NCBI GenBank assembly: GCA_018664825.1
Contig: JABJNO010000025.1
Coordinates: 3,022 to 67,021, forward strand
Length of the DNA stretch: 64,000 nucleotides
DNA from: Candidatus Parcubacteria bacterium
GTDB lineage: Bacteria; Patescibacteriota; Patescibacteriia; UBA1558; GWA2-36-10
Direction: 5' to 3'
Shown here: positions 9,647 to 61,152 of the stretch, one piece after another
Position numbering within the stretch: the first letter of the stretch is position 1
Layout of the letters: each line of letters opens with the position of its first letter
The notes under the pieces: model-generated
What the model was told of the DNA's origin: nothing
Seen by the model: the letters and a program-made list of their open reading frames with translations, nothing else
Database searches by the model: none
Position numbers and translations under genes: made by a program

Positions 9647-9820
9647 TAATTTCTTGATAATTAAACTTATATACTTATCTTAATTTTTATCTATTTTTGT
9701 AATATAAATAATAACATATCATCATCAAAAATAACAGTCAAGGGACAAAATGAGCCCGATTTTTGTATTTGATTTTTTAGCTAACAAATGATAAAATTCT
9801 ACTATAATTTCATTATTTTT

Positions 9821-26283: not shown

Positions 26284-28854
26284 ATGACAACACTCGAAAC
26301 TTATCCATTGGTTAAAAAACCATTCAAGAAAATTACAGCCAATAAATTTTGGATCGCCTCCATGGTTTTTGCTGTTGTATTATTGTTGCCCCAAGTTGTT
26401 TCGGCGGGTATGGGAGACAAAATAGCAGTGGGAATTGGACAAATAGTGTACTACATAGGAGTTGCTTTTCCAGCTTGGATTTTGATGATAGAGCTAAAGT
26501 TATTGCCAATGATTGGTCAATACAACGACTTTACCCGTGAAAATGGTGTAGTGGTAGGTTGGACTGCTTTACGAGATTTGGCCAATATGTTTTTTATACT
26601 TATTTTACTCATTATTTCCTTTGCTACTATTTTGCGTATTGATCGTTTTGGTTATCGTCAGTTGTTGTCAAAGTTGATTATTATGGCTGTACTGATCAAT
26701 TTTAGTATGACCATAACTGGTCTACTGATTGATTTTTCGCAGGTAATAATGCTTACTTTTATTGATGCCGTAAAAGACGTGACAGCTGGAAATATTATGG
26801 TATCCCTAGGTTTGGGAAGTATTACGTCTTTTGGTGAACAAACAGGTAGTGTCCAAGGGATAGATTTTTTAAAGGCAGTACTTTTGGGATCAGTCATGAT
26901 GGTGATTGCTGTGGTTGTAGTAGCCGCTTTTATGCTTGTATTGACTGCTAGGATTGTAAAATTATGGATTCTAATAGTAGTTTCTCCGATGGTATTTTTG
27001 GCTTATGCTTTTCCTCTTACAGAAAAATATTATAGTCAGTGGGTAGATGAGCTTACCAAGCAGTTGATTTCTGGTCCGACCTTGGCATTTTTCTTGTGGC
27101 TTTCTTTTACTATTGTAGGTAGTGGGAATGTATCTGACAATTTTACAAAATATGCTCCACCGGGTGACAATGGCTCAGAGATAAGTGCAGCAGCTAGTAC
27201 GCCAAATATTGTAAATTATGTGATTAGTATATCTATGTTGGTAGGCGCCTTGGGATTTGCAGCCCAACAAAATAGCGCCGCCGCTGCTTTGTCAAACAAA
27301 TTTAAATCTGGTTCAAAGAAGCTTGGTGGAATGGCAGCTAAGCGTGTTTGGCAAGGTGGAAGATCTGCAGGTGGTGCAGGTGGCGTCAAAGGCGCATTTG
27401 TTTCTGCAGGTGGTGTGGTTGCGGGTAAACTCAGGGGACTTGGTGTTGGTATGCAAGGTAAAGATAAAGATGGTAACGATAAAAAAGGTAAGGGCAATGC
27501 TGTTCTTAGGAAGGTTCTTGGTGGTGCGGGTCGTAAGGCCGAAAGGGCTGGCATAGAAGGCGAGGCACACTCGGCTGCCGCAGCTTCTACTCGAGACAAA
27601 GGAATGCAAGAGGCGATGAAGAATATGAATCCAGCTCAGCAAAAAAGATATCTTGAGTTAAAAGGTGGAGACAAGGAATCTGGTGCAGCAAAAGGAAGGT
27701 TTAGTGGAGGTGATTCTGCTAGACGTCTTATGATTCAGATGAACATGGATTCTGGACACTATGATACAGATGCTGGTGCTGAACAAGTGCAAGATGATTA
27801 CAAATTTTTAGAAGAGAGAGGTGGTATGGAGTCTCACGAAACAATGAAAAAAATGAAATCAAAGTACGCTGTTTTGGATGATTCTAGTGAGGCTGACATA
27901 GCCAAGGACATTGCTACTGGTAAAGTAGAATCAGTTGACTTTAGTGGATGGCAGATGCCCGATGGAAGTATAAATACTAACGCCAGGAAGAAAATGGATG
28001 CTTTGGTAGATGGTATGGATTCAAAAGATTTACAGGCTTTGTTTGATAGGATGAACAAGCGCCAGCAAGATGCTTTCAAGGATGTGATGGCGAATATGGA
28101 GGCTCAGGATATAGGCTTGACCAAGGGAGTCAATGCTGATGGATCTACCAAAGAAGATGATAAAACACACAAAGCTAGAATGTTTATGATGAATAATGAT
28201 GCCAAGGGTTCTACGGCTTTATTTGATAAAATTGCAGCCAAAATCGGAGCTACTGGCACAAGCTCAGCTGATAAACTTAAATTCGAAAAAACGCGTGATA
28301 GCTTGGCAACTGCTAGAAGTGGTACCAAGTTTGATACTTCAACTTTACTCAAAGCAGATGCCGGCTCTTCATACGTGACGTCGATGGCAGGTTTATTGAC
28401 CGCTGGTCAATTGGGTACCGTAGCTAGTGAAGGTACCAGGGAGCAGAGACAGGCAGTTGTTGACGAACATATTACGGGTGGAGGACAACATTTATCTACT
28501 ATTTTAGCCAACAAACCCTTGGGAGACCTTATCAATGAAACAACTATACAACAAAATTTTAAAAATCAAATAGATGCTGCGCCTGATCCAGCAGTAATGG
28601 CCACAAAGTTGGCCAAGGGTAATTTGAATTTTGCTCAACAGGTATATCCTGATCCAAAAGACTTGGCTAAATTTATCAATGATAATCTAAAAGTTGATGA
28701 GGCAGTAAAGATAGATACATCAGAACTAAAAAAAGCCTGGGTGCATCTAGATGTTGCTATGCAAACTGCCCTTGAAAAGAAGGGTGTTACTGGCCCTGGC
28801 GGCTCTAGTGGTTCTGGTGGTGGCGGAGCAAATACAGGTGGAGGTGGTATATAA
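26284..28854 (+). CDS. polytopic membrane protein (~8 TM) with Gly-rich linker and long hydrophilic C-terminal tail, with TrbL/VirB6-like topology (speculative)
   Basis: N-terminal 330 aa strongly hydrophobic. GGRSAGGAGGVKGAFVSAGGVVAG Gly-rich region. Hydrophilic 500-aa tail ending GGSSGSGGGGANTGGGGI. 30 nt downstream of the giant protein. Confidence 0.45.
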   Translation: MTTLETYPLVKKPFKKITANKFWIASMVFAVVLLLPQVVSAGMGDKIAVGIGQIVYYIGVAFPAWILMIELKLLPMIGQYNDFTRENGVVVGWTALRDLANMFFILILLIISFATILRIDRFGYRQLLSKLIIMAVLINFSMTITGLLIDFSQVIMLTFIDAVKDVTAGNIMVSLGLGSITSFGEQTGSVQGIDFLKAVLLGSVMMVIAVVVVAAFMLVLTARIVKLWILIVVSPMVFLAYAFPLTEKYYSQWVDELTKQLISGPTLAFFLWLSFTIVGSGNVSDNFTKYAPPGDNGSEISAAASTPNIVNYVISISMLVGALGFAAQQNSAAAALSNKFKSGSKKLGGMAAKRVWQGGRSAGGAGGVKGAFVSAGGVVAGKLRGLGVGMQGKDKDGNDKKGKGNAVLRKVLGGAGRKAERAGIEGEAHSAAAASTRDKGMQEAMKNMNPAQQKRYLELKGGDKESGAAKGRFSGGDSARRLMIQMNMDSGHYDTDAGAEQVQDDYKFLEERGGMESHETMKKMKSKYAVLDDSSEADIAKDIATGKVESVDFSGWQMPDGSINTNARKKMDALVDGMDSKDLQALFDRMNKRQQDAFKDVMANMEAQDIGLTKGVNADGSTKEDDKTHKARMFMMNNDAKGSTALFDKIAAKIGATGTSSADKLKFEKTRDSLATARSGTKFDTSTLLKADAGSSYVTSMAGLLTAGQLGTVASEGTREQRQAVVDEHITGGGQHLSTILANKPLGDLINETTIQQNFKNQIDAAPDPAVMATKLAKGNLNFAQQVYPDPKDLAKFINDNLKVDEAVKIDTSELKKAWVHLDVAMQTALEKKGVTGPGGSSGSGGGGANTGGGGI

Positions 28855-33480: not shown

Positions 33481-35019
33481 ATGCCAACATTAAATAATAC
33501 TAAAAATCAAACTTCTTCAAAAGATAATTGGTCTGATAATTTATTAATCAAGGATAAAGGTGGTAAATTGCACCACTTGAATTCATCAAATAAAGATAAA
33601 AATGTTGGTTCTTTTAGTAAAAAAAGTACAGAAATTGATCATAATTTGAGCTTAGCACCAGCTGATGATAGTTTTTCTGCCAATCAACTTATCGATGGTA
33701 CAGCCGAGACCAGGGCGGATCTTGTGTTTCACCCAGAAGATGATCAACAACTAAAAAAAATTGCCAAAAATATACCTCTCGATGGTAGTAAAAAATACAG
33801 CATTGATAAAATAGCGGAGAGGATAATCGAAAAGCAAGGATTAAAATTTGATACTGGAAATAAAAAGTTATTTATTGATATTCTTTTTGATTTTTTTCGT
33901 AATCGTAAAAAAGCATCAGGAGTACGAGAAATTTTATCTAGTAAAATAAAATCTGCAAAAAAGAGCCTAGCCTTGGAAGTTGTTGATAATATAGTATCCG
34001 TGATCAAAGGTATAAAGGCAAAAGTAGATTCTCAAAGTGGTCTAGTGGTTAGGATGTCAGAAATAGAAAAACCTCCTGTTAAAATTCAACCAGAAATTAC
34101 ACAAAAAATATTACCAGAAATTGGACCACCAAAAGTTGTTTATGATTTGGACGAAGAGGCAGATACTAGTGATATTCAAGAATTGGCTAAATTTGTTGGT
34201 GATATTCCAAAAGAAAAATTTGAAATTCCGGATAAAAAAGCACCTATTGTCAAAGATTTGGAGTCAGATTTGAAAGAAACATTGGAAATAGAAAAAGAGT
34301 TACCCAAAGATATTGAACAAGCTCCAAAGAAAGAAGAAGAGGAAAAGCCTCAGCCTATTCCTGTCAAAATTGTTGAGCCGCCAAAGCAGGAGCCAAAAGA
34401 AGACGTGGTCCTTGCCAAGGTTGCAGATGACAAGAAAGAACCAGGTGGAGGATTTGAAATTCCGGATAAAAAAGCACCTATTGTCAAAGGCTCTGGACAA
34501 ATCAAAGATCAGCCAAAACCGATTAAAAGTTCAGCTACACACGCCAAGGGACTTGAACAAATCAAAAAAGAACCAGTGACCGCTTCTTTGCCAAAAGTTG
34601 TTCGTCCTATGCAGGATGCTAAAAATCAGATTAGTGATGTAAAAACTCAACCAAAACCAGCACCAATGGCACCAAGAGCTGTTCCTAAACATGCTTTGAG
34701 TGGACCGGTGCAAGAGTTACAGGTTTTGGATTTGCACAATTGGAGAAATTTGGGTGACGATGCAGATAGTAGGGCTGAGAGATTGATGGAAAAGATAAAT
34801 ATGTTAGAAGAAGAATCGTTTACCAAAAAAGCCCAAGGTATAGATGCTTGGAGAAAGAGTCCTGTTCATCAAGAATATTTGGAGTTAGGGGCAGAGAGTA
34901 TGGGTCAGGGTAAAGAAGTATCAACCTTGATTACCGAATATGAGCAACAAGGTAAAGAAACCTTATCAATAGAAGAATTTGCCGCTGTATCTGATTTAAA
35001 TAAAAAATTAAGGTTCTAG
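33481..35019 (+). CDS. hypothetical Lys/Pro/Glu-rich low-complexity protein with internal duplicated FEIPDKKAPIVK segment
   Basis: Long ORF. Repeats at aa ~240 and ~330. Immediately upstream of the T4SS-like genes. Confidence 0.4.
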   Translation: MPTLNNTKNQTSSKDNWSDNLLIKDKGGKLHHLNSSNKDKNVGSFSKKSTEIDHNLSLAPADDSFSANQLIDGTAETRADLVFHPEDDQQLKKIAKNIPLDGSKKYSIDKIAERIIEKQGLKFDTGNKKLFIDILFDFFRNRKKASGVREILSSKIKSAKKSLALEVVDNIVSVIKGIKAKVDSQSGLVVRMSEIEKPPVKIQPEITQKILPEIGPPKVVYDLDEEADTSDIQELAKFVGDIPKEKFEIPDKKAPIVKDLESDLKETLEIEKELPKDIEQAPKKEEEEKPQPIPVKIVEPPKQEPKEDVVLAKVADDKKEPGGGFEIPDKKAPIVKGSGQIKDQPKPIKSSATHAKGLEQIKKEPVTASLPKVVRPMQDAKNQISDVKTQPKPAPMAPRAVPKHALSGPVQELQVLDLHNWRNLGDDADSRAERLMEKINMLEEESFTKKAQGIDAWRKSPVHQEYLELGAESMGQGKEVSTLITEYEQQGKETLSIEEFAAVSDLNKKLRF

Positions 35020-35023
35020 ATTT

Positions 35024-35485
35024 ATGCAAGATAAATTTATAGTGCCACAATTTATTGATTCAGAGGATAAGATTTGGGGACCGATTACTGTTCGTCAGTT
35101 TATTCTGGTTATTGTTGGAGGTTTATTTATTTTTTTAGCCTATAAATTTTCAGATTTTACTTTGTTTTTATTGCAAACTATTTCGATAGCTATATTTGTT
35201 GGTTTATTTGCTTTTTATAGAGTAAATGGAGCTCCTTTTCATCTTTTTGCCATAAATGTAATTCAAACTTATAAAAAACCAAAAATTAGAGTTTGGTTAA
35301 AAGAGTATATTCGAATAGAGCAAATAAAAAGCAAAGAAGAGGGAAAGGTAGAAAAAATTATTCCTCGTAGACCTTTTATTGCCCAAAGCAAACTTTCGGA
35401 GTTATCTTTGATTATAGATACGGGTGGCATTTATAAAGGAGAACAAAGGGCCAATGGTTTAAATAATGTAGAAGTAAAGAAATAA
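35024..35485 (+). CDS. PrgI-family (VirB3-like) small membrane protein of type IV secretion systems
   Basis: N-terminus FIVPQFIDSEDKIWGPITVRQFILVIVGGLFIFL matches the PrgI pattern (VPKDI..E.KI..GLT.RQ followed by two TM helices). Sits directly before VirB4. Confidence 0.55.
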   Translation: MQDKFIVPQFIDSEDKIWGPITVRQFILVIVGGLFIFLAYKFSDFTLFLLQTISIAIFVGLFAFYRVNGAPFHLFAINVIQTYKKPKIRVWLKEYIRIEQIKSKEEGKVEKIIPRRPFIAQSKLSELSLIIDTGGIYKGEQRANGLNNVEVKK

Positions 35486-35495
35486 TTGATAATAT

Positions 35496-36176
35496 ATGAA
35501 GAACAAAAAATTAGCAGGAGGCAAGCCAAATCAATCAACTCAAAAATATTTAGATATTGCAGAAATTCGAGATGATATCGTTATTTTAAATGACGGTACT
35601 GTTCGGGGAGTATTGTTGATATCATCTATCAATTTTGATTTAAAATCTGAAGATGAACAAAGAGCGATTATTGGTGGGTATGTTAGTTTTTTAAACACCC
35701 TGGATTATCCTTTGCAGATAGTTATCCAATCTAGGCCTTTGAATATTGATGATTATTTAGATAGGTTAAAAAAGGTAGAAAAAGAGCAGACCAATGAATC
35801 TCTTCGTATGCAGACAGTTGATTATCGACAATTTATCAATGAGCTGCTTACTTTGGAAAAGATTATGAGTAAAAAGTTTTTTGTAGTTGTACCTTATCGT
35901 CCAGTTAGTGACAAAAAGAAAGGCTTTATTGATAGATTTGGGTCTGTATTTTCTACAGCCAAAGTAGTCCAGTTGAGCCGTAAAAGATTTGATGAATTTA
36001 ATAGCAAAGTAAATAAACGTTGTGATTTTGTGATGTCTGGTTTGGCTAGTCTTGGTCTCAGGAGTCAGAGACTAAATACTCAGGCCTTGATTGAACTTTA
36101 TTACAATAGTTATAACCCAGATTTATTCCAAAGACAGCCTTTGGAAACAATGGATAAATTAAGAGTGGAAACATAA
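35496..36176 (+). CDS. VirB4/TrbE N-terminal domain encoded as a separate ORF
   Basis: YLDIAEIRDDIVILNDGTVRGVLLISSINFDLKSEDEQRAIIGGYVSFLNTLDYPLQIVIQS aligns with the N-terminus of VirB4 proteins (YLPY..HLSDHIVLLEDGS...I.G..FE...). Stop TAA at 36174-36176, next ATG at 36178. Confidence 0.55.
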   Translation: MKNKKLAGGKPNQSTQKYLDIAEIRDDIVILNDGTVRGVLLISSINFDLKSEDEQRAIIGGYVSFLNTLDYPLQIVIQSRPLNIDDYLDRLKKVEKEQTNESLRMQTVDYRQFINELLTLEKIMSKKFFVVVPYRPVSDKKKGFIDRFGSVFSTAKVVQLSRKRFDEFNSKVNKRCDFVMSGLASLGLRSQRLNTQALIELYYNSYNPDLFQRQPLETMDKLRVET

Positions 36177-36177
36177 A

Positions 36178-38109
36178 ATGTTTGGATTTAAAAAAATAAA
36201 AGAAGCAACCTCTAATCAGGCTAAGCAAGCAGGGCAAGTTGCCAACGCGTCTCAATCTGCTTTACCTCCCACCAAAGAAAACAAGGGGCAGGTAATGGAA
36301 AAAGACAAGGCTTTGTTGGAGGCAGAAAAAGTATTTAGAGAAGGCGTTGTAAGTGTGCGTGATGTGATAGCACCAGCTGCTTTCAAAGTAGATAGTAATT
36401 TTTTGAGACTCAATGATGTCTATGTGCGGACATTGTTTGTGATGACTTATCCTAGGTATGTGACCATTGGTTGGTTTGCTCCGATTATCAACGAGAGCCT
36501 GACCTTGGATATTGCTATGTTCTTTTATCCTCTGGATATTCAGTTGGTTTTGAAGCAATTGAGAAATAAAGTAGGTACAATGGAGGCTCAGATTATTTCT
36601 GATCATGAAAAAGGTGCTCCGCGTGATCCGATTGCCGAAACTGCCCTTCGAGACATTGAAGGTCTTAGAGATGGCTTGAGCCAGGGTACAGAAAAGTTTT
36701 TTCAATTTTCTTTGTATGTCACTATTTATTCAAAAGATAAAGATGAGTTAGAAACAGCTACTGATCGTATTGAAAATTTATTGGGCATGCAGTTGATTTA
36801 CTCTAGAAAATCTTTGTTTCAATCAGAGCAGGGATTCAACTCTACTTTGCCCTTGGGTAATGATGAATTATCTATTTCTACAAATATGAATAGTTCGCCG
36901 ATTGCATCTTCTTTTCCTTTTGTGTCTAGTGAGCTTACTTCAGATGAGGGTATTTTGTACGGTATAAATAGACATAACAATAGTTTGATATTATTTGATA
37001 GATTTAGCTTGCAAAACGCCAATATGGTAGTTTTTGCTACATCTGGTGCTGGTAAGAGTTATGCTATTAAGCTAGAAGTATTACGTTCAATGATGATAGG
37101 TTCGGATGTGATTATTATTGATCCAGAAAATGAATATAGACATCTTTCAGAAGCTGTAAATGGTGCTTATATCAATGTTTCTCTAAATTCAGAAAGTAAA
37201 CTAAACCCTTTTGATTTACCAAGAGGAGTAGGAGGAGAAAGTAAGCCAGAGGATATATTGAGATCTGCGGTCATCACCTTGAAAGGTTTGATCCGTTTGA
37301 TGATTGGTGATGTGACAAATGCAGAAGATTCTCTGCTTGATAGGGCATTGCTCGAAACTTATGCCAAAAAAGATATTACAGCAAGTAGTGACCTTTCAAA
37401 TATAGAACCACCTTTGATGTCTGACCTTGAAGAGGTATTACTTAGTATGGAAGGCGGAGAAGATATGGCCTTGCGCATCAAAAAATATACCGAAGGTACT
37501 TTTTCTGGACTATTCAATAGCCCAACCAATGTTCAGGTTGATAATCAGCTGATTATTTTTAGTATTAGAGATCTAGAAGATGAGCTGAGGCCTATTGCGA
37601 TGTATGTAATTGTAAATTATATTTGGAATATTATCCGTAGTGAGCTCAAACGAAGGATTTTGGTAGTTGATGAGGCCTGGATTATGATGAGGCACGAAGA
37701 TAGTGCCAAATTTATGTTTGCCCTAGTAAAACGTTGTCGAAAATATTATCTAGGTGTGACGACTATTACCCAGGATGTAAATGATTTTCTTACCTCTCCA
37801 TTTGGTAATGCTATTGTGACCAACTCTTCTATGCAAATGTTGCTCAAACAATCACCCGCATCTATTGGTCTTATTCAAAAGACATTTATGCTTACTGAGG
37901 GTGAAAAATATCTATTATTGGAATCTGGTGTTGGTGAAGGAATATTTTTTGCCGGATCAAAGCATGCGGCTATAAAGATACAAGCTTCGTATACAGAACA
38001 TCAGCTAATTACTTCTGACCCTCGTCAATTGTTGGAAATTGAAGAAGCCAAAAAAGAGTTTGAAGAGGCAATGATGCTGGAAGCAGAAGGTGGTACTACC
38101 AATGTTTAG
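36178..38109 (+). CDS. virB4: VirB4/TraC-family type IV secretion ATPase
   Basis: Gram-positive-type VirB4 N-region (VYVRTLFVMTYPRYVTIGWFAPI), Walker A ATSGAGKSYAIK, Walker B ILVVDEAW (DEAW hallmark of VirB4), C-terminal TITQD motif. Confidence 0.85.
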   Translation: MFGFKKIKEATSNQAKQAGQVANASQSALPPTKENKGQVMEKDKALLEAEKVFREGVVSVRDVIAPAAFKVDSNFLRLNDVYVRTLFVMTYPRYVTIGWFAPIINESLTLDIAMFFYPLDIQLVLKQLRNKVGTMEAQIISDHEKGAPRDPIAETALRDIEGLRDGLSQGTEKFFQFSLYVTIYSKDKDELETATDRIENLLGMQLIYSRKSLFQSEQGFNSTLPLGNDELSISTNMNSSPIASSFPFVSSELTSDEGILYGINRHNNSLILFDRFSLQNANMVVFATSGAGKSYAIKLEVLRSMMIGSDVIIIDPENEYRHLSEAVNGAYINVSLNSESKLNPFDLPRGVGGESKPEDILRSAVITLKGLIRLMIGDVTNAEDSLLDRALLETYAKKDITASSDLSNIEPPLMSDLEEVLLSMEGGEDMALRIKKYTEGTFSGLFNSPTNVQVDNQLIIFSIRDLEDELRPIAMYVIVNYIWNIIRSELKRRILVVDEAWIMMRHEDSAKFMFALVKRCRKYYLGVTTITQDVNDFLTSPFGNAIVTNSSMQMLLKQSPASIGLIQKTFMLTEGEKYLLLESGVGEGIFFAGSKHAAIKIQASYTEHQLITSDPRQLLEIEEAKKEFEEAMMLEAEGGTTNV

Positions 38110-38134
38110 TTTTAATAAAAAATAACATAAATAT

Positions 38135-38707
38135 ATGGATGAACAACAAAAGAAAAAAGCTTTTTGGTTGGCAGTAATAATTTTGATTGTTATTGGAGTA
38201 TTATTTTTCTTCCTAGTAATTAGGGACAAGAATAATACAGAGATTGAGGCAGAGGGGGATGAAGGAATACCGGAGTTTCAAGTACCTAGCGCAAACATCA
38301 AATTTGATCCAGAATTGCCACCCGTTGCTACCAATGCAGAGTTTTCAGCTATTAATTTGGCAAAAAATTATGTAGAGAGACTTGGTAGCTGGTCTACAGA
38401 CAATCAACTGCACAATTTGGAAGAATTAATACCACTTAGTTCAGCCAAGATGAGAATCAACTTGGATAGTGTAGAGGCAGATTACAGTAATGATGATTTT
38501 AGTGGTATTACAACCAAGAGTTTGACTACTGAGGTGTTATCCATGGATGAAAAATCTGCTGAGATAATAGTTGGTACACAGAGGATAGCTACAAGGGAAG
38601 AAAAGTCAAAGAAAGGTGTAACCGAAAATGTATATACACAAGAAGCAAAGGTAAGTCTGATAAAATCAGGCAATACTTGGCTAGTTGATGAAGTTGAGTG
38701 GCAATAA
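38135..38707 (+). CDS. N-terminally anchored hypothetical protein (possible VirB8/TcpC-like bitopic component)
   Basis: Single TM (FWLAVIILIVIGVLFFFLVI) plus ~150-aa extracytoplasmic domain. Position right after VirB4. Confidence 0.3.
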   Translation: MDEQQKKKAFWLAVIILIVIGVLFFFLVIRDKNNTEIEAEGDEGIPEFQVPSANIKFDPELPPVATNAEFSAINLAKNYVERLGSWSTDNQLHNLEELIPLSSAKMRINLDSVEADYSNDDFSGITTKSLTTEVLSMDEKSAEIIVGTQRIATREEKSKKGVTENVYTQEAKVSLIKSGNTWLVDEVEWQ

Positions 38708-38731
38708 TTTATAATTATTAAGAATAAGAAT

Positions 38732-39022
38732 ATGGCAGAGGTACAGATCAGGGAATTGGAAAAAGAAATAAAAGACCAATTAGATAGAATTTATAAATTA
38801 TTGGATGAAAAGAAAAGTGCGGAGTTTATTAAGATAGAGTATAAAAGGGTTGTTGAGTTAATCTCTCAAAAGTATTTATTGATGAAGGATGAGATGCAAA
38901 AGAGAAAAAATCAAACAGACCCAACCGAATTTGCTAAACAAATGGCAGGCTTGGATGCACATTATAAAGATGATGTAATTGCAATTGCTGTCGGCATTGA
39001 TAATACATTAGAAGGTAAATAA
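38732..39022 (+). CDS. small coiled-coil hypothetical protein
   Basis: 96-aa ORF with charged heptad-like sequence in T4SS-like cluster. Confidence 0.3.
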   Translation: MAEVQIRELEKEIKDQLDRIYKLLDEKKSAEFIKIEYKRVVELISQKYLLMKDEMQKRKNQTDPTEFAKQMAGLDAHYKDDVIAIAVGIDNTLEGK

Positions 39023-39037
39023 TTTTAGACAGAAGCT

Positions 39038-40135
39038 ATGGTTGGTCCTGGGAACATTTCAATGCCAATGCAGTCCTATCTACAAGGTGCTTTGGGTACT
39101 ATGGTAGGTGAGGTTTTGAGTGATGTCATGATAAGTGATTATGATATCCAGGCTTTTAAAGAGGGTGGCAAAAAAGATATAATGAAAACGGCTCTAGTGA
39201 GGGCCGTTGGTAAACTTACATCTTCTTTGACCTATGGCATGGTTCATGGTGGCGATATTCAAAATTATCGAGAAACTGGCTCTTTGAAAGAAACTTTGAT
39301 GAAAAAGGACCTGGTCGGAATGGCTCTGACTGCGGCTACTATAGCAATGCCTCAATTGGCTATAGCCACAGCAGTAGCTAGGAGAGTTGGTCCAGAGATT
39401 ACAGCTGAAGATATAGCCAAAAAAGCAGGCGAAGCAAAGGCTGGTATCCAGAGCAGGGTGATGGATTTAGAGATGGATCTTATGGAGGAGGATCCGGAGA
39501 TTGCAGATGCTTATGATCCCAACTTGGATCCGGACTTTCAAAAATCTAGAGAGGCAGGTGGTTATGTGCCTCCTGGTAATGAGAGGACAGTAGGGCGTCA
39601 GCTGAGAGCGATGCAAAAAGGTTCTGGTGATGATGACAATCAACCAGATTCAGGTGAGGACTCAGGTGAGGGTAAGGAGGGTGCATCACCCGATGGAAAT
39701 GAACAAAGTAAAATGAGAGCCTTAAAAGGAGAAAAGAGTAAGGCTCAAGCCAAAAAAAAGAAACAAGCTCAAGCCAAAGCCAAGAAACAACTTGAGGCAA
39801 AGATAAAAAAGAAGATAACCGACATGGCTCTTAAGGCAGGATTTAGGACGGCGGCAGCTGGCTCAGCAGCCACGTTGATAGGGCTTGTTGTTACTTATAT
39901 ATTGTGGGCTATTCAAATTATTGCTGGTAACTGGCTCAAATCACAAATAATTCCACCACTTGGTTTAGGAGAGAGGATTGCATTTGGTGTTGTTACATTT
40001 ATTATGGTACTTGCAGTTATTATCGCTTTTATTTTTGTCATGTTGACCTTTGTGTTGATGAATGGATGGGTTATAGCACTTAGTTATTTTGGTTCAGAGA
40101 TGGTATTATTTTTTAAAGATTTTTTAGGAATGTAA
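39038..40135 (+). CDS. hypothetical protein with Lys-rich region and C-terminal multi-TM anchor
   Basis: KAQAKKKKQAQAKAKKQLEAKIKKK stretch followed by 3 hydrophobic helices at the C-terminus. Confidence 0.4.
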   Translation: MVGPGNISMPMQSYLQGALGTMVGEVLSDVMISDYDIQAFKEGGKKDIMKTALVRAVGKLTSSLTYGMVHGGDIQNYRETGSLKETLMKKDLVGMALTAATIAMPQLAIATAVARRVGPEITAEDIAKKAGEAKAGIQSRVMDLEMDLMEEDPEIADAYDPNLDPDFQKSREAGGYVPPGNERTVGRQLRAMQKGSGDDDNQPDSGEDSGEGKEGASPDGNEQSKMRALKGEKSKAQAKKKKQAQAKAKKQLEAKIKKKITDMALKAGFRTAAAGSAATLIGLVVTYILWAIQIIAGNWLKSQIIPPLGLGERIAFGVVTFIMVLAVIIAFIFVMLTFVLMNGWVIALSYFGSEMVLFFKDFLGM

Positions 40136-40154
40136 TATAAATTAAAATTTTTAT

Positions 40155-41378
40155 ATGGATATTAAAAAATTGTTAGTAGTAATTGGATTTATAGTCCTAG
40201 TAGCATTAGTAGGCTTTGCTTTGTATTGGGTATTTTTTAAACAACCAAACGAAGAAAGAATATTACAAAATTACAACGGTGGAACAATACCTTCGGGCAA
40301 TGAGGGGAATCTAAATGTTGTAAATGATGACAATGCTAATAATGATCAAACTTTACCTTGGCAGGAATATTTGGAGGACAAAGTGTCGCCAGTTGCTGCT
40401 GGAGGACTTACCCAAGTGACTAGAATCACTGATTCAGAAGTCAGTGGGGTCATTTCTGGTATAGATGGAATACAATATTATGATGAAGAGGCTCAACAAT
40501 TTTATCGTATAAACGAAAAAGGGGAGGCAGAATTGATGTCCAACAACAAATTTTTTCAAGTTGAAAATGTAAATTGGGCCAAGTCAGGCAATAAGGCAAT
40601 ATTAGAATATCCGGATGGTTCAAATATTTTGTATAATTTTTCAAATGGAAAACAAGTGACTTTGCCACCGGAGTTGGAAGATTTTGGCTTTAATACTATT
40701 GGTAATCAAATAACAGCCAAGTGGATTGGTAATAATGATGATAACAATTGGTTGATAGCTGCCAATGATGATGGTTCTGGTATGTTTTTGTTGGAGCCTT
40801 TGGGTGATCAAGCACACAACACTCAGATGGGATTTTCTCCTGACAATCAGGTAGCTGCTTTACATAGAAAATATATTGATGCTCAGAGACAACAGGTATT
40901 TCCAATAGGTCTACATGGGGAAAACCTAAAAGCCTTTACAGTCAATGGATCGGGCTTTGTATCCGAATGGTCCCCAGAAGGAAATTCTATGATTTATAGT
41001 GTTTACCATGAAGATACAGATTATATGCCGAGTATGTATGTGACCAAAGGTAGTACATCTGAATTGGGAGATATAAAGATATCTTTGAATGTGGCTACAT
41101 GGCCTGAAAAATGTACTTTTTCAGGAGAAAGTACACTGTATTGTGCGGTTCCTCAGGGCTTACCTAGGGGCGCTGGTATGTATCCAGAAATAGCCCAGGA
41201 ATATCCTGATAATTTTTATCATATAGATTTGGAAAGTGGTACAAAAACATTAATTGCTAGTCCTATAGGAGACAGTGCTAGTTATTCGGCCAATGGTTTG
41301 TCTGTATCTGACGATGGATCATTTTTGTATTTTATTGATCAAAATACAGGCTTATTACAAAGTATTAGATTAAAATAA
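40155..41378 (+). CDS. N-terminally anchored beta-propeller (TolB/PD40-like repeat) protein
   Basis: TM (LLVVIGFIVLVALVGFALYWVFF). Repeated W/F-SP(D/E)G motifs (NWAKSGNKAILEY, GFSPDNQVAALH, EWSPEGNSMIYSV). Confidence 0.45.
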   Translation: MDIKKLLVVIGFIVLVALVGFALYWVFFKQPNEERILQNYNGGTIPSGNEGNLNVVNDDNANNDQTLPWQEYLEDKVSPVAAGGLTQVTRITDSEVSGVISGIDGIQYYDEEAQQFYRINEKGEAELMSNNKFFQVENVNWAKSGNKAILEYPDGSNILYNFSNGKQVTLPPELEDFGFNTIGNQITAKWIGNNDDNNWLIAANDDGSGMFLLEPLGDQAHNTQMGFSPDNQVAALHRKYIDAQRQQVFPIGLHGENLKAFTVNGSGFVSEWSPEGNSMIYSVYHEDTDYMPSMYVTKGSTSELGDIKISLNVATWPEKCTFSGESTLYCAVPQGLPRGAGMYPEIAQEYPDNFYHIDLESGTKTLIASPIGDSASYSANGLSVSDDGSFLYFIDQNTGLLQSIRLK

Positions 41379-41384
41379 TATATT

Positions 41385-42440
41385 ATGAAAAAAACAATTT
41401 TTGGACTATTATTTATTTCTTTTTTTGCATTGTTTTTTGTCTTCACTGTTAGTGAGGTCAATGCAGAGATTGTTTTCGAACCAAATGTCAGAATACCAGG
41501 TACCTCATTTGGAGGATCGGTAATAATTTCTGCCGAAGATAACTCCATAGGCCTTTACATAAAGGCTCTGTACGAATATGGAGCGGTATTTGTAGGAGCG
41601 GTAGCTATGTTTATGCTTGTCTTTGCTGGCTGGCAGTGGCTGATGGCTGCTGGCTCATCAGACAAAATTGGACGAGCCAAAGAAACAATAAATGGTACCT
41701 TGATAGGGTTGATATTGTTGTTTGGTGGTTATTTATTGTTATCACAAATCAGTACAAATTTGGTTGAGTTCAAGGATATCAATATTGTACCATTGGATTT
41801 GGAGACTACTAGTGATGAGACTTGCGATACCATGAATCAAAGGATTAAGAATGGCACAGCTCCTGATTATATACCTACAACACTTATAGATCCTGCCTCA
41901 AAGTATGCTTGCGGTAAGCCTTATCCTGTATGGAAAACAAATGAAGATGGTACGACTGATTTTAATAATAAAGAGGCAGATTGTACGTATAACCTTTCTA
42001 GCATAGACTCATCAAGATGTAGAGCCAAAAAGAACGGAGAGGAATTATGGAGTAAAGATTGTGTTTCTGTGCCTGATCCAGCCTATCCTTGTAAACAGTT
42101 GTCTGGTAATTGTACTTGGATTTTTTCTGGTAACAATAGGCCAGGTAACAAATGTGAAAATTATTTGAATAAGGATTGGTGTATTTCTAACTATTGTCGT
42201 ACTGAGCATCCAGAATATGAATGTGGCCTTGATCAAAACAATCCTAGAGCAAAATGTGAGCTCTTGGACAATGTCTGGTGTAATAGTAGTGAATATTGTG
42301 ATTTTGACGGTTCAAATAAATGGTGTTGCGAGGATAGCGGTGGTACTGATTACTGTCGTATAGACAAAACAGTTGATAGTGATAGAGGTAATCCGGATAA
42401 CAACAATGATAATATAACAGATAATTGTAGAACTATATAA
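41385..42440 (+). CDS. VirB2/TrbC-like pilin domain fused to a C-terminal cysteine-rich domain
   Basis: Signal peptide, then two hydrophobic helices separated by a short basic loop (AVFVGAVAMFMLVFAGWQWLMAAG - SSDKIGRAKETINGT - LIGLILLFGGYLLLSQI), as in VirB2 pilins. Followed by ~210 aa with >20 Cys. Confidence 0.4.
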   Translation: MKKTIFGLLFISFFALFFVFTVSEVNAEIVFEPNVRIPGTSFGGSVIISAEDNSIGLYIKALYEYGAVFVGAVAMFMLVFAGWQWLMAAGSSDKIGRAKETINGTLIGLILLFGGYLLLSQISTNLVEFKDINIVPLDLETTSDETCDTMNQRIKNGTAPDYIPTTLIDPASKYACGKPYPVWKTNEDGTTDFNNKEADCTYNLSSIDSSRCRAKKNGEELWSKDCVSVPDPAYPCKQLSGNCTWIFSGNNRPGNKCENYLNKDWCISNYCRTEHPEYECGLDQNNPRAKCELLDNVWCNSSEYCDFDGSNKWCCEDSGGTDYCRIDKTVDSDRGNPDNNNDNITDNCRTI

Positions 42441-42449
42441 AATAAAAAA

Positions 42450-42474
42450 CTACCCAGAGATGGGTAGTTTTTTT
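42450..42474 (+). terminator. rho-independent terminator
   Basis: CTACCCA-GAGA-TGGGTAG hairpin followed by T7. Confidence 0.65.
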
Positions 42475-42508
42475 AACCTTCGAGGTTGGATGTCCAACCT
42501 CGAAGGTT
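42475..42508. repeat. REP palindrome pair (5' flank of RAYT)
   Basis: AACCTTCGAGGTTGG-ATGT-CCAACCTCGAAGGTT, a 15-bp perfect stem. An additional single copy TGTCCAACCTCGAAGGTT sits at 42563-42580. Confidence 0.8.
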
Positions 42509-42619: not shown

Positions 42620-43189
42620 ATGCCAAATAAATCAAGGAACATTTATGCAGGTAACTATTACCATATTTATAATAGAGCAGTAGAGAAGAGAACTATATTT
42701 TATAGTGAAAGTGATTATGAATATTTTATTTCTAAAGCTATCTTATATAAAGAAATGACGGAGGTAAAGATATTGGCTTATTGTATTTTACCAAACCATT
42801 TTCATTTTTTATTGAAAGAACCAAAATCAACCTCGAAGGTTGAAATCTCGGCAATTTCTAAATTTATTTCTCTTTTGTCTAATTCATATACAAAACATTT
42901 TAACTTAACCAAGGAACATTCTGGTAGGCTGTTTCAGGGGCCATTCAAGTCTAAGTTAGTAGATGATGATAGTTATTTGAAAGTTTTATTAAACTATATA
43001 AATTTGAATCATTTAAAACATAAAATAACTGACAAAGTTAATGACTGGCCTTATAGTTCACATCATAATTATGTAGGGAAGTGGAAATATAATTTGATTG
43101 GGAAAGATTGTATAGTTGATTTTGAAGAATATAAACAGGTTATAAATTATTATAAAAATAGTTTATCTAGTTTATACGAAGAATTTTAA
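42620..43189 (+). mobile_element. REP-associated tyrosine transposase (RAYT, IS200/IS605-like Y1 HuH transposase)
   Basis: HuH motif LPNHFHFLL and C-terminal YINLNHLKH...NDWPYSS (catalytic Tyr, NPV-like motif and WPxSS typical of TnpA_REP). Gene contains one REP copy internally (42829-42841) and its stop codon overlaps another (43189-43201). Confidence 0.75.
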
Positions 43190-57005: not shown

Positions 57006-57154
57006 AATAATAAATTTAATTGTTAAAGCAATTAATATAATTTTACTAAATCTTAGAGCTTTTGGCAATCTTTGAAATATTTTTATTTCAGACTGAAATG
57101 TGGTATAATATATCAAGAAATCGGAACAAAAAAATAAAAGTTAAAAATAAAAGT

Positions 57155-59260
57155 ATGTTCAAAAAAATCAATCATTGGCATTTGTCAATTTTAGTACTAA
57201 TAGCTTCGATTTTTGGTTTAATATTGGTACAAAAAGTGGTATTTGCACAATGGGAAGATCCGATTGGTTTACCTGGAGAATCAGGAGATTGGCATTTTGT
57301 AATCAATCCATTGGCTGAGGATTTAGAAATGAATAATTTTAAAATTTATGATACAGACCTAAGTATTGATCCTGCAGCTACTGACAAAATTTTGGTAAAT
57401 GACGGAAATATCAGGGTGACCAATGGACAGATTTGTCTCAATGGAGAGTGTCAGATTACCTGGCCATCTGGCGGGGGAAGTGGTGGATATTGGACAGAAA
57501 ATCCAGCTGACAGTACAGAAATTTATTATAGTGCTGGTAATGTAGGCATCGGCACATCCGATCCACTTCACAATCTATCTATTGTAAATACTACAGGAAA
57601 TCCAGAAATTACCTTTGATGATTTGGATGGAGATACTCATTGGGGCATTTACCATGATACAGGTAGCGAAGAATTGAGATTTTGGAATGATGGTACAAAT
57701 ATTTTATCTTTGAGAACTAATGGCTCAGCTGAGATGGGCTACAATACTGTCGCTACCGGAAACAATGCTATGGCTATTGGTATTGGTGCTCAAGCAACGG
57801 GAAATTATTCGGTTGCTATTGGTAATAGTGCTAGAGCTAGTGGGCAGACTTCTTTTGCTAGTGGATATCAAAGTAGGGCCACTCAAGACACTTCGACTGC
57901 TATAGGTTATTGGACAGTAGCTGACGGCCCTCAATCTGTAGCTATGGGCAGTCAGGCTAGCACGACTGCTTATTATGCAGTTGCTATAGGTAGATTGGTA
58001 GAGGCCAATGGCGCGGCTTCTGTGGCCATGGGTATAAGTTCAGTGGCTAATAGTAGTGGTTCAGTGGCTATAGGGCATCAAGTAACTGCCAATGGAGGTA
58101 GTTCTACGGCTATGGGCTACCAGACACGGGCAGTTGGAAATTATTCTTTTGCCGCAGGCTATGGCTCAGATGCAGTTGGAAATTATTCTTTTGTTGGTGG
58201 ACAAGACAACTGGGCTAGTGGTGCTGGTTCTACGGCTCTTGGTAGAGGAAATACAGCTAGCGGTGAAAAATCTTTTGCTGTTGGATTCCAAAATACAGCT
58301 AGCGGTCACGAATCAGTGGCTATGGGCAATGGTACTAGAGCTGAAGGTAATAACGCATTTTCTATGGGCGAAGATGCAGTAGCCGCGGGGCTAAATTCTA
58401 TAGCTATGGGACAAAATATACTCGCAAGTGGAATCAACTCTACAGTTATAGGCAGGGACGCAATTTCTCTTGGTATGGGTTCCGTTGCTCTTGGTCGTTA
58501 TTCAGAGGCTAGCGGTGATTATGCATTTGTATTTGGAGGAGGAGATAATATATCAGATACTGTGGCTAGTGGTAACTATTCTATAGCCATGGGTTTCAAA
58601 ACAGAGGCTACCAACAGTTATGCTGTAGCCATGGGTCAGGGCTCAATAGCTAGCGGAGAACATTCTGTAGCCATGGGAAGAAATACAAGGGCCTCAGGAG
58701 CCGCTTCTTTTGCCAATGGATATCAGGCAAACGCTGTAGGAGGAGTTTCTTTTGCTAGTGGTTGGATAGTAGATGCTGAAGGTCAATTTTCTACAGCAAT
58801 GGGCTATCAAACAAATGCTATGGGAGATTATTCTACGGCATTGGGTGTTTATGCTGATGCTAATCATAACAATTCTTATGTCATAGGCTTGGATGCGGGT
58901 AGTACTACTAGGTGTGAAAGTAGTATTGAAAATCAGTTTAAAGTTTGTGGTGATACATCTTTGGAGGGTGAGCTTTGTTTGAATGGAGATTGCATCAGTG
59001 ATTGGTCTACAGCAAGTAAATTAGAAGATTATAATATTGTTTGTACAGCTCCTAGTTTTGGTGGGGCGTGCTCTGTTAGTTGTGCGCCTGGCTTTGTACT
59101 TACATCTTGGGAATGTACAGATCATCTTGGTGGTTATTTACCGGGCGGAATTTGCATTCAAGGAGTCACAGAGGGTAGCATAATAGACACAGTAAGCCCT
59201 TTTGGTTGTCCAGATTCTCATGGTGATTGTGTTGGTAATGGAGTCTGCAGTAGACTTTAA
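57155..59260 (+). CDS. secreted surface/adhesin-like protein with Hep_Hag-type (YadA-head-like) repeats and Cys-containing C-terminal domain
   Basis: Leader MFKKINHWHLSILVLIASIFGLILVQKVVFAQWEDP. Tail-fibre-like motif GNVGIGTSDPLHNLSIV. About 20 copies of S/N-x-A-x-G-x-x-A-x-A-x-G repeats (NNAMAIGIGAQATGNYSVAIGNSARASGQTSFASG...). ICLNGECQITW and CLNGDCISDW motifs. Start at ATG 57155. Confidence 0.6.
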   Translation: MFKKINHWHLSILVLIASIFGLILVQKVVFAQWEDPIGLPGESGDWHFVINPLAEDLEMNNFKIYDTDLSIDPAATDKILVNDGNIRVTNGQICLNGECQITWPSGGGSGGYWTENPADSTEIYYSAGNVGIGTSDPLHNLSIVNTTGNPEITFDDLDGDTHWGIYHDTGSEELRFWNDGTNILSLRTNGSAEMGYNTVATGNNAMAIGIGAQATGNYSVAIGNSARASGQTSFASGYQSRATQDTSTAIGYWTVADGPQSVAMGSQASTTAYYAVAIGRLVEANGAASVAMGISSVANSSGSVAIGHQVTANGGSSTAMGYQTRAVGNYSFAAGYGSDAVGNYSFVGGQDNWASGAGSTALGRGNTASGEKSFAVGFQNTASGHESVAMGNGTRAEGNNAFSMGEDAVAAGLNSIAMGQNILASGINSTVIGRDAISLGMGSVALGRYSEASGDYAFVFGGGDNISDTVASGNYSIAMGFKTEATNSYAVAMGQGSIASGEHSVAMGRNTRASGAASFANGYQANAVGGVSFASGWIVDAEGQFSTAMGYQTNAMGDYSTALGVYADANHNNSYVIGLDAGSTTRCESSIENQFKVCGDTSLEGELCLNGDCISDWSTASKLEDYNIVCTAPSFGGACSVSCAPGFVLTSWECTDHLGGYLPGGICIQGVTEGSIIDTVSPFGCPDSHGDCVGNGVCSRL

Positions 59261-59307: not shown

Positions 59308-61152
59308 ATGTTGAAAAAAATTAATAGTTGGCATTTGTCAGTTTTGGTACTTGTAGCTTCTGTGCTGGGTTTGGTCCTAGTACAACAACAAGTATTGGCA
59401 CAATGGCAAAATCCTACTGATACACCAGGACAAGCTGGTGACAGTAGTCTAGTTTTAAATCCTTTAGTTGAAGATGTTGACCTTAGTGGTTCAAAATTTA
59501 CAGATAGCGCAAACGCTACTTTTGTACTTGAGCCAGGTGGTGTGACGGGTATGAATATTACGGGTACCGGCTATGGCATCAATGCCACAGGCGCTACTTA
59601 TGCAGGTTATTTCAATGGTGATATGCATGTTACCGGAGACCTTACTGTCGATGGATCTAGTCCAGGCGGCGCAGGTGGAGGCTTTTGGTTAGAAAGTCCT
59701 ACTGATCCTGGTGATATCTATTATGATGGTGGATATGTGGGTATTGGTACTTCAGATCCCGCTGCACCCCTACATATAATTAAGAGCGGTAGTCAGCTAA
59801 AAGTTACACCTGATTATATCTGGCACTTAAGTAATTCACGTTTCAAAATATCATCAGGCGGAGACGTGTCAATCAGGCCAGACAATAGTGAGTCTGCTTC
59901 ATCTACTTTTTCAGAGCTTGGTAGGCTTGGTATTCGTGTTGAAGACCCTGGCTATCCACTACATGTAAGAGATGATGATTCAACCTCAATATTGAATATA
60001 GATAACCAAGATGGTCATCTTTGGACAGGCACTCGTTTGGAAAGGGATGATCAAGAAAAATGGTTTATTGGTATGGACAATACTACTGATACTTTAAACT
60101 TTAGAGCTAATAATGCTACCAATACCGTATCAATCAATATTGATTCTAATGAAGCAGAATTGACTTTAGAATCTTATGAAAGATCATTTATAAATCTTCT
60201 TGTTTCAGATCCATGGGTTACTACTATTGATAATGTAGGTATTGATTTTACACGTAATAATTGGGCAACAGATCAATATACTGATTATAGGATGCTTGTA
60301 AACAACGGAGACTTTATTCTCAATTCATACTATCAAGATGTTTATAATCCTGTTCCCGCTATTGTTGGTACACCTTTGTTTATCCGAGATATTGGTTTGG
60401 GTACTGGTGGAAATTCTGTGGCTGGGTATATGGGTATCAACAAGACTGATCCTTCAGCACAATTGCATGTTTATGATGATGAGGCTGCTTCAGTTAGTGC
60501 AGACGGAGGAATAGCTATCTTAGGAAACAATGACAATGCCAGTGGTGGTGTCGGTGTGATTGGCTTGCAGACAAATGGCTCTGGAATCCCCAACGCAATT
60601 GGTGCACTGGGTATGAGTGGGCCAAATGGTTTTTCTAGTGGTAACTTAGATATTGGTGTTTTTGGCGCTGTTACCAATGATACAGCTTTAGGTGTTTATG
60701 GTTATAATAATTCTACTCCTGGCGGTGGCGGAGACTACACAGACAAAAGTGTCGGTGTACTTGGCCAAGGTCATTGGGCGGTAGTTGGTGATAGTACTAC
60801 TTCAAATGGACGTGGTGTTTATGCTGAGGGTTATTATGGTGTAAAAGCAAGGTCTACCGTGGCTGGTGGTTATGCTATCTACGGCGAAGAAGGTAGTGGT
60901 GACTATGCTGGTAAGTTTGTTGGTGATGTTTGGGTAGCCAGTGGTGGTGATCTAAAAATAGATGACTCCAATGCTAACACCCCTGCCTATCTTAGGCTTG
61001 ATGTCACAAGTACTGTTCCAAATAGCGTTGATTGTGATTCTGATGTTGATGAACCTGGTAGGATGGTATTTGATAATACTGCTAATGTTATATACATATG
61101 TACAGGTAATACTACTGGTTGGCAGGCCCTTTTCCCCAATACTGTGAAATAG
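59308..61152 (+). CDS. secreted surface protein, paralog sharing the N-terminal leader of 57155..59260
   Basis: MLKKINSWHLSVLVLVASVLGLVLVQQQVLAQWQNP leader (~60% identical to upstream gene over the first 65 aa). GYVGIGTSDPAAPLHII motif. Gly/Ser/Thr/Asn-rich, predicted beta-rich. Confidence 0.6.
   Translation: MLKKINSWHLSVLVLVASVLGLVLVQQQVLAQWQNPTDTPGQAGDSSLVLNPLVEDVDLSGSKFTDSANATFVLEPGGVTGMNITGTGYGINATGATYAGYFNGDMHVTGDLTVDGSSPGGAGGGFWLESPTDPGDIYYDGGYVGIGTSDPAAPLHIIKSGSQLKVTPDYIWHLSNSRFKISSGGDVSIRPDNSESASSTFSELGRLGIRVEDPGYPLHVRDDDSTSILNIDNQDGHLWTGTRLERDDQEKWFIGMDNTTDTLNFRANNATNTVSINIDSNEAELTLESYERSFINLLVSDPWVTTIDNVGIDFTRNNWATDQYTDYRMLVNNGDFILNSYYQDVYNPVPAIVGTPLFIRDIGLGTGGNSVAGYMGINKTDPSAQLHVYDDEAASVSADGGIAILGNNDNASGGVGVIGLQTNGSGIPNAIGALGMSGPNGFSSGNLDIGVFGAVTNDTALGVYGYNNSTPGGGGDYTDKSVGVLGQGHWAVVGDSTTSNGRGVYAEGYYGVKARSTVAGGYAIYGEEGSGDYAGKFVGDVWVASGGDLKIDDSNANTPAYLRLDVTSTVPNSVDCDSDVDEPGRMVFDNTANVIYICTGNTTGWQALFPNTVK

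Follow-up and report, generated by a model that had tools for sequence, protein, structure and literature searches.

Introduction

The open reading frame (ORF) 41385..42440 lies on the forward strand of a 64,000-nt stretch of DNA from an ultrasmall Candidatus Parcubacteria bacterium; the whole stretch is called the window here. The ORF encodes a protein in which a pilin-like helical hairpin is joined to a cysteine (Cys)-rich domain, and it is the last gene of an operon for a type IV secretion system (T4SS). The window has a low G+C content (about 33-43%) and belongs to a Patescibacteria chromosome.

VirB2-like pilins are already known from the T4SS clusters of Patescibacteria (PMC10633639, PMC12102498, PMC12857230). 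They are linked to the T4SS and are essential in Saccharibacteria; the essential pilin array is that of Southlakia epibionticum ML1, and pilins lie near virB4 in 1,135 assemblies (PMC10633639, PMC12102498). The Patescibacteria T4SS is essential for epibiotic life in the only species tested (PMC10633639, PMC12857230). No filament has been demonstrated for any Patescibacteria T4SS (PMC12857230). What appears to be new in this study is the fusion of such a hairpin to Cys-rich or M15 peptidase domains.

Results

Architecture of the gene and its product

ORF 41385..42440 starts with an ATG located 6 nt past the stop codon of the preceding gene and encodes 351 amino acids (aa) plus a stop codon. The product is 100% identical to the NCBI entry 'hypothetical protein HN859_03070, partial [Candidatus Parcubacteria bacterium]'. 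NCBI thus names it only as hypothetical, and one relative is named simply 'pilin'. The features of the gene are as follows.

41385..42440, forward: whole gene, pilin-like hairpin plus Cys-rich domain (ORF list of the window, NCBI identity)
41385..41465, forward: signal peptide, residues 1-27 (MKKTIFGLLFISFFALFFVFTVSEVNA, cleaved before E), with a Sec-type A-x-A site (hydropathy and sequence; helix 3-21 in the model)
41466..41564, forward: mature N-terminal extracellular segment, residues 28-60, with a conserved F-x-P-N-x-x-I-P-G motif (20 homologues)
41565..41648, forward: hydrophobic helix 1, residues ~61-88, core AMFMLVFAGWQWLMAA (hydropathy; helix 54-87 in AlphaFold2)
41649..41690, forward: short basic inter-helix loop, residues 89-102 (GSSDKIGRAKETIN), predicted to be cytoplasmic in the membrane form (hydropathy)
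41691..41753, forward: hydrophobic helix 2, residues ~103-123 (GLILLFGGYLLLSQIS) (hydropathy; helix 92-125 in AlphaFold2)
41754..41804, forward: flexible linker, residues 124-140 (predicted local distance difference test score, pLDDT, <50 for residues 125-140)
41805..42437, forward: Cys-rich extracellular domain, residues 141-351, 18 Cys (Cys positions, AlphaFold2)
42444..42473, forward: hairpin resembling an intrinsic terminator that closes the operon, 13-bp stem AAAAAACTACCCA/TGGGTAGTTTTTT followed by a T-run (sequence)

ORF 41385..42440 is a real gene, and the signal peptide and two-helix topology of its product are established. An earlier reading of the sequence alone (the original prediction) had described a signal peptide followed by a helix, a short basic loop and a second helix, and this arrangement was borne out by the hydropathy and by AlphaFold2. 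The full-length model, built with 20 homologues, consisted of a helical hairpin (residues 54-87 and 92-125) and a disordered linker (125-140). Conservation among the 20 homologues was concentrated in the same elements: P33, I37, P38 and G39 of the mature N-terminal segment were near-invariant, and invariant residues were found in helix 1 (F76, M77, L78, V79, A81, W85, L86 and A88), in the loop GSSDKIGRAKETING (G90, A98 and K99) and in helix 2 (G108, L111, L112, F113, G114, L118, I122 and S123). The C-terminal part extends for 227 aa beyond helix 2, of which about 190 are folded (core residues ~141-333 in the model). The tail of this domain is of low complexity and rich in D and N, and the final Cys is Cys348.

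Conservation of the fusion

A search with the full-length protein recovered 27 database clusters, most of them at about 90% query coverage and 29-36% identity. When a profile of the C-terminal domain (C-domain) alone was run against 1.84 billion representative proteins, 31 clusters (50% identity) were found. In nearly all of them the domain occupied residues ~130-340 of proteins of 300-400 aa, and the sequences opened with the same signal peptide and hairpin. Because there were only 31 clusters and the domain stood nearly always behind the hairpin, the C-domain is, as far as these profile matches indicate, rare and essentially confined to the hairpin fusion. In a scan of 185,579 GTDB species-representative genomes, the hairpin gene with a Cys-rich extension was present at 16 loci, and 11 of these encoded the 20-Cys type of domain. 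The predicted fusion of a Cys-rich domain to a pilin-like module is therefore genuine and conserved, with 27-31 clusters and 16 species loci.

The original prediction had itself raised the objection that the Cys-rich part might be a separate ORF once a sequencing error was corrected. An artefactual fusion of two genes through sequencing or assembly error is extremely improbable. In one related contig (L019) the two parts do lie in different frames: its second pilin gene consists of two ORFs, one for the hairpin (139 aa) and one for the Cys-rich part (142 aa). The single-ORF architecture, however, was seen in about 30 independent clusters and in 16 species genomes that come from different studies, every complete member of the hairpin subfamily bears the Cys-rich extension, and no credible short form was found. 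The comparative data have thus already refuted the artefact. P0047 (139 aa) was considered as a short pilin and rejected, as it is the first half of the split gene. In P0046, the second pilin gene of L013, an extra domain is located on the N-terminal side, which is likewise extracellular.

Family assignment of the hairpin

The profile PF18895 (T4SS_pilin of Patescibacteria) matched residues 69-113 of the 351-aa protein with an E value of 8.9e-5 and 22.9 bits; the Pfam gathering threshold is 26.6 bits. Every relative tested scored below this threshold (18.6-24.9 bits), and the same-slot orthologues of L010 (30.7 bits), L017 (30.1 bits) and L013 (28.5 bits) scored above it. We accept putative PF18895 membership at the family level, and not from the score of the window protein itself, because these three same-slot orthologues, whose hairpins are 46-59% identical to that of the window, pass the threshold. 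The NCBIfam scan of the 351-aa protein returned no family. A search of a 5.8-billion-protein set with the hairpin profile gave at least 10 proteins, a count that comes without a length distribution for the wider PF18895 family. Within the window, the hairpin hidden Markov model (HMM) found only ORF 41385..42440 among all six-frame ORFs of at least 40 aa and no paralogue, and a hydropathy screen of intergenic ORFs gave no candidate with a signal peptide plus hairpin.

A pilin of the type IV pilus or type II secretion kind was considered and rejected, because the protein has no prepilin leader: the G-to-F/M-xxx-E processing site is missing, and there is instead an ordinary Sec leader (VNA before E) with two internal hydrophobic helices.

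The Cys-rich C-terminal domain

The protein contains 18 Cys, fewer than the more than 20 first counted. All of them lie within residues 147-348 and none elsewhere in the 351 aa. Cys accounts for 8.8% of a stretch of 205 residues; its share in the remaining ORFs of the window is 1.1% (binomial P about 2e-11). Most relatives have 20 Cys, an even count, and the alignment of the C-domain has 20 canonical Cys columns. Cys4 and Cys8 are missing in the clade of the window protein, and they are co-absent in at least three other lineages as well (L003, L010 and P0041/P0043), while the remaining Cys are kept. Since the two are lost together, they behave like two mutually bonded residues. This paired loss in at least four lineages is what would be expected of a disulfide pair; it is from the co-loss of Cys columns that the pairing was judged and that we infer disulfide bonding. 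The half with the strongest conservation is that of Cys11-20, which is retained in shortened variants (L012 and L014, for example).

The AlphaFold2 model of the domain alone, built with 30 homologues, had a mean pLDDT of 86.7 and a predicted TM-score of 0.76. The C-domain of the window protein matched 0 Pfam families. Among 30 relatives there were single-member stray matches only (E 0.006-0.1), of Cys-rich inhibitor or EGF type and non-significant; the Cys-rich families considered included EGF, TIL, lustrin and squash inhibitors, among others. Against PDB sequences the single best match of the C-domain profile was an irrelevant protein (E 0.066), and the best Foldseek matches of the domain model had E values of 1.3 (PDB) and 0.44 (BFVD), with TM-scores of about 0.2 or less. 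The C-domain is predicted, according to this confident model, to be a disulfide-rich fold without a known relative.

Several other ORFs of the window are also Cys-rich. The original prediction had proposed a comparison with the C-terminal tails of ORFs 3448..5070 and 57062..59260 for a shared fold, and such kinship failed at the sequence level (at most 3 bits with the C-domain HMM, BLASTP E>25). Kinship to the Cys-rich ORFs 5107..8277 and 17431..26253 was likewise rejected at this level, as neither the C-domain HMM nor BLASTP gave anything. In the product of ORF 5107..8277 (1,056 aa), a bacterial TSP3 repeat is combined with a C-terminal thioredoxin domain of the DsbA-like kind, whose CxxC lies at residues 908-911. 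This protein is a candidate extracytoplasmic disulfide oxidoreductase, which would serve the many exported proteins of the window that are rich in Cys. The presence of the DsbA-like domain together with several other Cys-rich exported proteins is consistent with an oxidising extracytoplasmic compartment. The giant ORF 17431..26253 (2,940 aa, 110 cysteines) gave a weak CBM_4_9 match only and probably encodes a surface protein. ORFs 57062..59260 and 59308..61152 encode adjacent exported proteins with a near-identical N-terminus. The former has 12 YadA-head repeat stretches (PF05658, E 9e-63), which is unusual in a monoderm lineage, and a 12-Cys tail.

The T4SS operon

ORF 41385..42440 is the last gene of a co-directional run on the forward strand (33481..42440). 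The genes upstream of it are as follows; identities are to the products of the related loci. TM stands for transmembrane.

33481..35019, forward: first operon gene, 512 aa, no TM helix, no Pfam match (orthologue in all full-length loci, 35-50% identical)
35024..35485, forward: PrgI / VirB3-like (PF12666, E 1.8e-10)
35496..36176, forward: TrsD-like, resembling the N-terminal part of VirB4 (NF041427 TrsD, E 8.5e-10; N-terminal match of VirB4_plasma)
36178..38109, forward: VirB4-family ATPase (PF19044, E 5e-28; NF045971, 349.5 bits, above the cut-off of 325)
38135..38707, forward: 190-aa protein with one N-terminal TM helix (syntenic, 36-48% identical)
39038..40135, forward: 365-aa protein with C-terminal TM helices and a weak DUF2207_C match (syntenic, 27-41% identical)
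40155..41378, forward: 407-aa protein with an N-terminal TM anchor (residues 1-31) and faint beta-propeller-like SGL/PD40 matches, directly upstream of the pilin gene (syntenic, 54-65% identical)

The VirB4 gene lies 3.3 kb upstream of the pilin-like gene in the same strand run, and this adjacency is kept in every related locus that reaches far enough. The Pfam scan of the operon ORFs gave no relaxase or VirD4 match, and the operon showed neither an outer-membrane complex nor a VirB5 tip protein. By its gene content, the operon is a chromosomal, relaxase-less T4SS related to the mating-pair formation class MPF-FATA, as described for Patescibacteria (PMC12102498). It is flanked upstream by the genes for ribosomal protein S6, single-stranded DNA-binding protein (SSB) and elongation factor P (EF-P), and downstream by an IS200-like Y1 transposase gene and then RecG on the other strand. 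In all loci that are long enough, including L001 and L019, the order is methyltransferase (reverse strand), S6, SSB, EF-P, 512-aa ORF, PrgI, TrsD, VirB4, 190-aa protein, membrane protein, 407-aa protein, one or two pilin genes, an optional Y1 transposase and RecG (reverse strand).

Two further observations concern the surroundings of the operon. A 13-nt palindromic unit, AACCTTCGAGGTT, occurs in 7 copies in the window against 0.1 expected. Its sites (33371-33401, 42475-42508, 42568-42580, 42829-42841 and 43188-43200) cluster immediately ahead of the T4SS operon and in or around the Y1 transposase ORF 42620..43189, and the position of the Y1 transposase gene beside the pilin gene is kept in L001, L002 and L009. 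By its arrangement, the set of AACCTTCGAGGTT copies and transposase looks like a domesticated system of the REP/RAYT type (repetitive extragenic palindromes and their associated tyrosine transposase) that brackets the operon. Farther upstream, ORF 26284..28854 encodes 856 aa with at least 8 hydrophobic segments in the first 330 residues, a large hydrophilic remainder, no Cys and no Pfam match. It may be a component of the envelope, VirB6-like in extended form or of another kind, that is encoded ahead of the T4SS block.

Divergence and modularity across related loci

With the window protein as reference, the products of the related loci had the following identities.

VirB4: 81-91%
TrsD: 69-84%
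EF-P: 66-76%
407-aa protein: 54-65%
PrgI: 55-65%
Hairpin: 52-66%
C-domain: 20-30%; 53% for the closest relative

The identity of S6 was 36-67% across L001-L018, and the mean column identity of the hairpin was 54%. Measured in this way, the T4SS motor (VirB4) is more strongly constrained than core translation factors.

The terminal slot of the operon varied in content. It held one Cys-domain gene in the window and in L001, L003, L004, L006 and L007, and two in L005 and L013. In L008-L012, L014, L016 and L019 it held a gene for a hairpin fused to an M15 domain (hairpin::M15), followed by a hairpin::Cys-rich gene; in L019 (8898..10870) the hairpin::M15 gene stands directly before the split hairpin/Cys-rich gene. 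The VanY/Peptidase_M15 scores of the hairpin::M15 paralogues exceeded the Pfam cut-offs in several loci, and the M15 metal-binding and catalytic motifs SxHxxGxAxD and EWWH, of the VanY/VanX-like kind, were present in the paralogue sequences. Further, shorter Cys-rich domain types with 8-16 Cys also occurred in the slot. Because the slot is variable (Cys, Cys plus Cys, M15 plus Cys) and the sole apparent short form is a split gene, the hairpin appears to behave as a conserved carrier for interchangeable extracellular modules.

Discussion

We propose with moderate confidence that ORF 41385..42440 encodes a subunit of the VirB2-like (PF18895) pilin family that belongs to a chromosomal and vertically conserved T4SS of Patescibacteria, and that this subunit displays a host-contact module outside the cell. 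The protein would be exported by Sec and its signal peptide cleaved after VNA. The two hydrophobic helices would then insert as a hairpin, with the basic loop in the cytoplasm and both ends outside, and the C-terminal end would present a domain of ~190 residues, with 9 disulfides (10 in most relatives), on a flexible tether of ~16 residues. The conserved hairpin would be the part that engages the T4SS. It could do so within the membrane, as a pool or stub, or in a polymerised filament of the VirB2 type with both termini outward. Given a VirB2-like topology with outward termini, the C-terminal domain would be displayed in either case, on a subunit that remains in the membrane as on one that polymerises. 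The fast-diverging Cys-rich domain would face the host, most likely as an adhesin or a receptor-binding head that determines the host surface to be engaged. In sister lineages the same hairpin bears an M15 D-Ala-D-Ala peptidase domain, and it may thus be a carrier of general use, by which extracellular modules are brought to the T4SS. The machine and the carrier are very conserved, and the outer module is swappable and changes fast; this combination points to the outer module as the element of host-contact specificity. Surface display, host binding and any polymerisation are what we infer. A tip or adhesin module on a T4SS filament, as first suggested for this protein, would be one form of such display.

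Several points weigh against this proposal. The score of the window protein itself against PF18895 (22.9 bits) is below the gathering score. The TrbC/VirB2 family PF04956, against which a comparison of residues 1-130 had been suggested, gave no match at E<=1 for the 351-aa protein, and its best E values among relatives (0.13-0.18, in two of them) were non-significant. The predicted assignment to VirB2/TrbC-type pilins is therefore upheld by the topology, the PF18895 match and the T4SS operon and fails at PF04956. When the hairpin profile was compared by hhalign with 20 Agrobacterium-type VirB2 sequences, the probability was 0.4% and the E value 0.14. This negative result is weak evidence against homology, because the VirB2 profile is narrow (20 sequences, Rhizobiales-dominated), and the short stretch that aligned was the topologically equivalent end of helix 1, loop and helix 2. 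The hairpin profile had no match at E<=10 among PDB sequences, hence no solved pilin sequence, and Foldseek of the full-length model against PDB gave no match to a solved pilin and only non-significant pseudopilin folds (E 1.6-2.8). As judged by these comparisons, the module has the topology and the genomic association of VirB2, and homology to VirB2 is not demonstrated by them. Furthermore, searches of the operon and of the 64-kb window gave no separate short pilin from which a filament shaft could be built, so that a filament would need a domain of ~21 kDa on every subunit. From T-pilus parameters (76 Å diameter, 5 subunits per 13.4 Å), we estimate a surface of ~640 Å2 per subunit against a domain cross-section of ~1000 Å2. 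Full decoration would probably be limited to a close-packed sheath with a radius of about 62 Å or more, which is possible but demanding. Finally, the C-domain matches nothing and hence gives no hint of a ligand, a host or a binding activity, and its fast divergence could also reflect relaxed constraint and not host adaptation.

A bolder form of the proposal is that every subunit of a VirB2-type T4SS filament or stub carries a folded module (the 10-disulfide domain of new fold or, in sister lineages, the M15 peptidase), with the hairpin as a general display carrier. It would amount to a decorated and enzymatically armed conjugative-type pilus in a monoderm, which recognises and breaches the host envelope. 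We regard this form as doubtful.

It is also conceivable, although somewhat unlikely in our judgement, that the protein is a non-filament component of the envelope. The hairpin would then stay in the cytoplasmic membrane as an anchor or docking element of the T4SS, and the Cys-rich domain would work in the cell's own envelope and make no host contact. It might be a rigid wall-spanning or channel-lining piece that replaces missing VirB8/9/10-type parts, or a partner or regulator of the M15 paralogue. Monoderm T4SSs are normally without pili (PMC12102498, PMC12857230), VirB8-like parts are rarely detectable in Patescibacteria, no other pilin-like gene was found in the operon or window, and every copy of the gene has a bulky domain. 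The paralogues bear a peptidoglycan peptidase that would act near the membrane, like VirB1, and a mean column identity of 54% in the hairpin is uncommonly high among Patescibacteria pilins (~25% for the pilin arrays; PMC12102498). However, an internal structural part should evolve at a rate nearer to that of the neighbouring envelope proteins, and the 20-30% identity of the C-domain is similar only to that of the 365-aa protein (27-41%). The swapping and duplication of domains in the terminal slot (Cys plus Cys, M15 plus Cys, several Cys types) are also typical of exposed, interaction-specifying modules.

That the protein is the precursor of a released Cys-rich effector or toxin is quite improbable. 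In that case the hairpin would be the carrier to the T4SS, and cleavage at the linker would free the C-domain for delivery to host or medium. The disordered linker in the model (residues 125-140) would permit this, and a domain that is small, very stable and rich in disulfides has the general character of many secreted toxins and inhibitors. Neither a protease site nor a conserved cleavage motif was recognised, however, and Sec export by itself places the domain outside, so that its delivery does not require the T4SS. The stray weak matches of one or two family members to Cys-rich inhibitor or EGF-type Pfam families, which might be cited in favour of an effector, are single-member and non-significant. 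The hairpin and the Cys-rich part are separated in L019 by a change of frame, which was seen in a single metagenome contig and may stem from misassembly.

The protein resembles the PF18895 pilins of Patescibacteria in its signal peptide and two-helix hairpin, its PF18895 match, its cluster with VirB4, TrsD and PrgI/VirB3, and its occurrence in a monoderm, host-dependent lineage. The described pilins differ in being small and in forming arrays of 2-11 copies with ~25% identity (PMC12102498), whereas here there are one or two copies, hairpins 52-66% identical, and a Cys-rich or M15 domain of 100-280 aa past helix 2. The papers searched contain no mention of pilin-like subunits fused to globular domains, either Cys-rich or peptidase. 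VirB2 of the Agrobacterium T-pilus, TrbC of RP4 and TraA of F share the topology, the basic loop residue and the association with VirB4. In the T-pilus the termini of VirB2 are on the outward face, and R91 of the loop faces the lumen and binds lipid (bioRxiv 10.1101/2022.09.25.509369); the invariant loop Lys (K99) may be the parallel of this residue. Significant sequence or profile similarity to these pilins is lacking, and canonical conjugative pilins end shortly after helix 2 (VirB2 of A. tumefaciens has 121 aa), in contrast to the 227 residues that follow it here. The operon also differs from diderm conjugative systems in that no outer-membrane complex and no VirB5 were found in it.

PrgB of pCF10 and the VirB5-type tip adhesins are comparable in the proposed role only, which is T4SS-encoded contact with the target cell. 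There is no relationship to them in sequence or fold, and the putative adhesin of this study is covalently part of a pilin-like subunit. PrgB-type adhesins have been reported as absent from Patescibacteria (PMC12102498). The hairpin::M15 paralogues of the sister loci would be functionally analogous to VirB1-type hydrolases in placing a peptidoglycan-active domain in the T4SS operon. Unlike VirB1, they are LAS/M15 metallopeptidases and not lytic transglycosylases or CHAP proteins, and they would be tethered to the membrane by the pilin-like hairpin. The M15 paralogue is missing from the window itself.

An operon whose ATPase is more conserved than EF-P thus terminates in a pilin-like gene or a pair of them, and the outer domains encoded there evolve fast and are subject to swapping and duplication. 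Such a pattern is the expectation for a determinant of host specificity, and the fusion bears on whether and how the T4SSs of Patescibacteria reach the host. The pilus question is narrowed by it: either VirB2-like filaments carry a domain of ~21 kDa per subunit, or these 'pilins' are membrane anchors. The C-domain also adds an uncharacterised domain family, which is compact and easy to express and to probe for binding.

Two minor observations were made in the course of the analysis. Six metagenome-assembled genomes with the operon (L003, L005, L009, L011, L012 and L018) were deposited as 'uncultured Gammaproteobacteria bacterium', which is probably a mislabel of third-party annotation (TPA) records. 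In the window, the leucyl-tRNA synthetase (9788..12682) contains a NUDIX hydrolase domain (PF00293, E 1.2e-13) at residues 399-520, right behind the editing domain.

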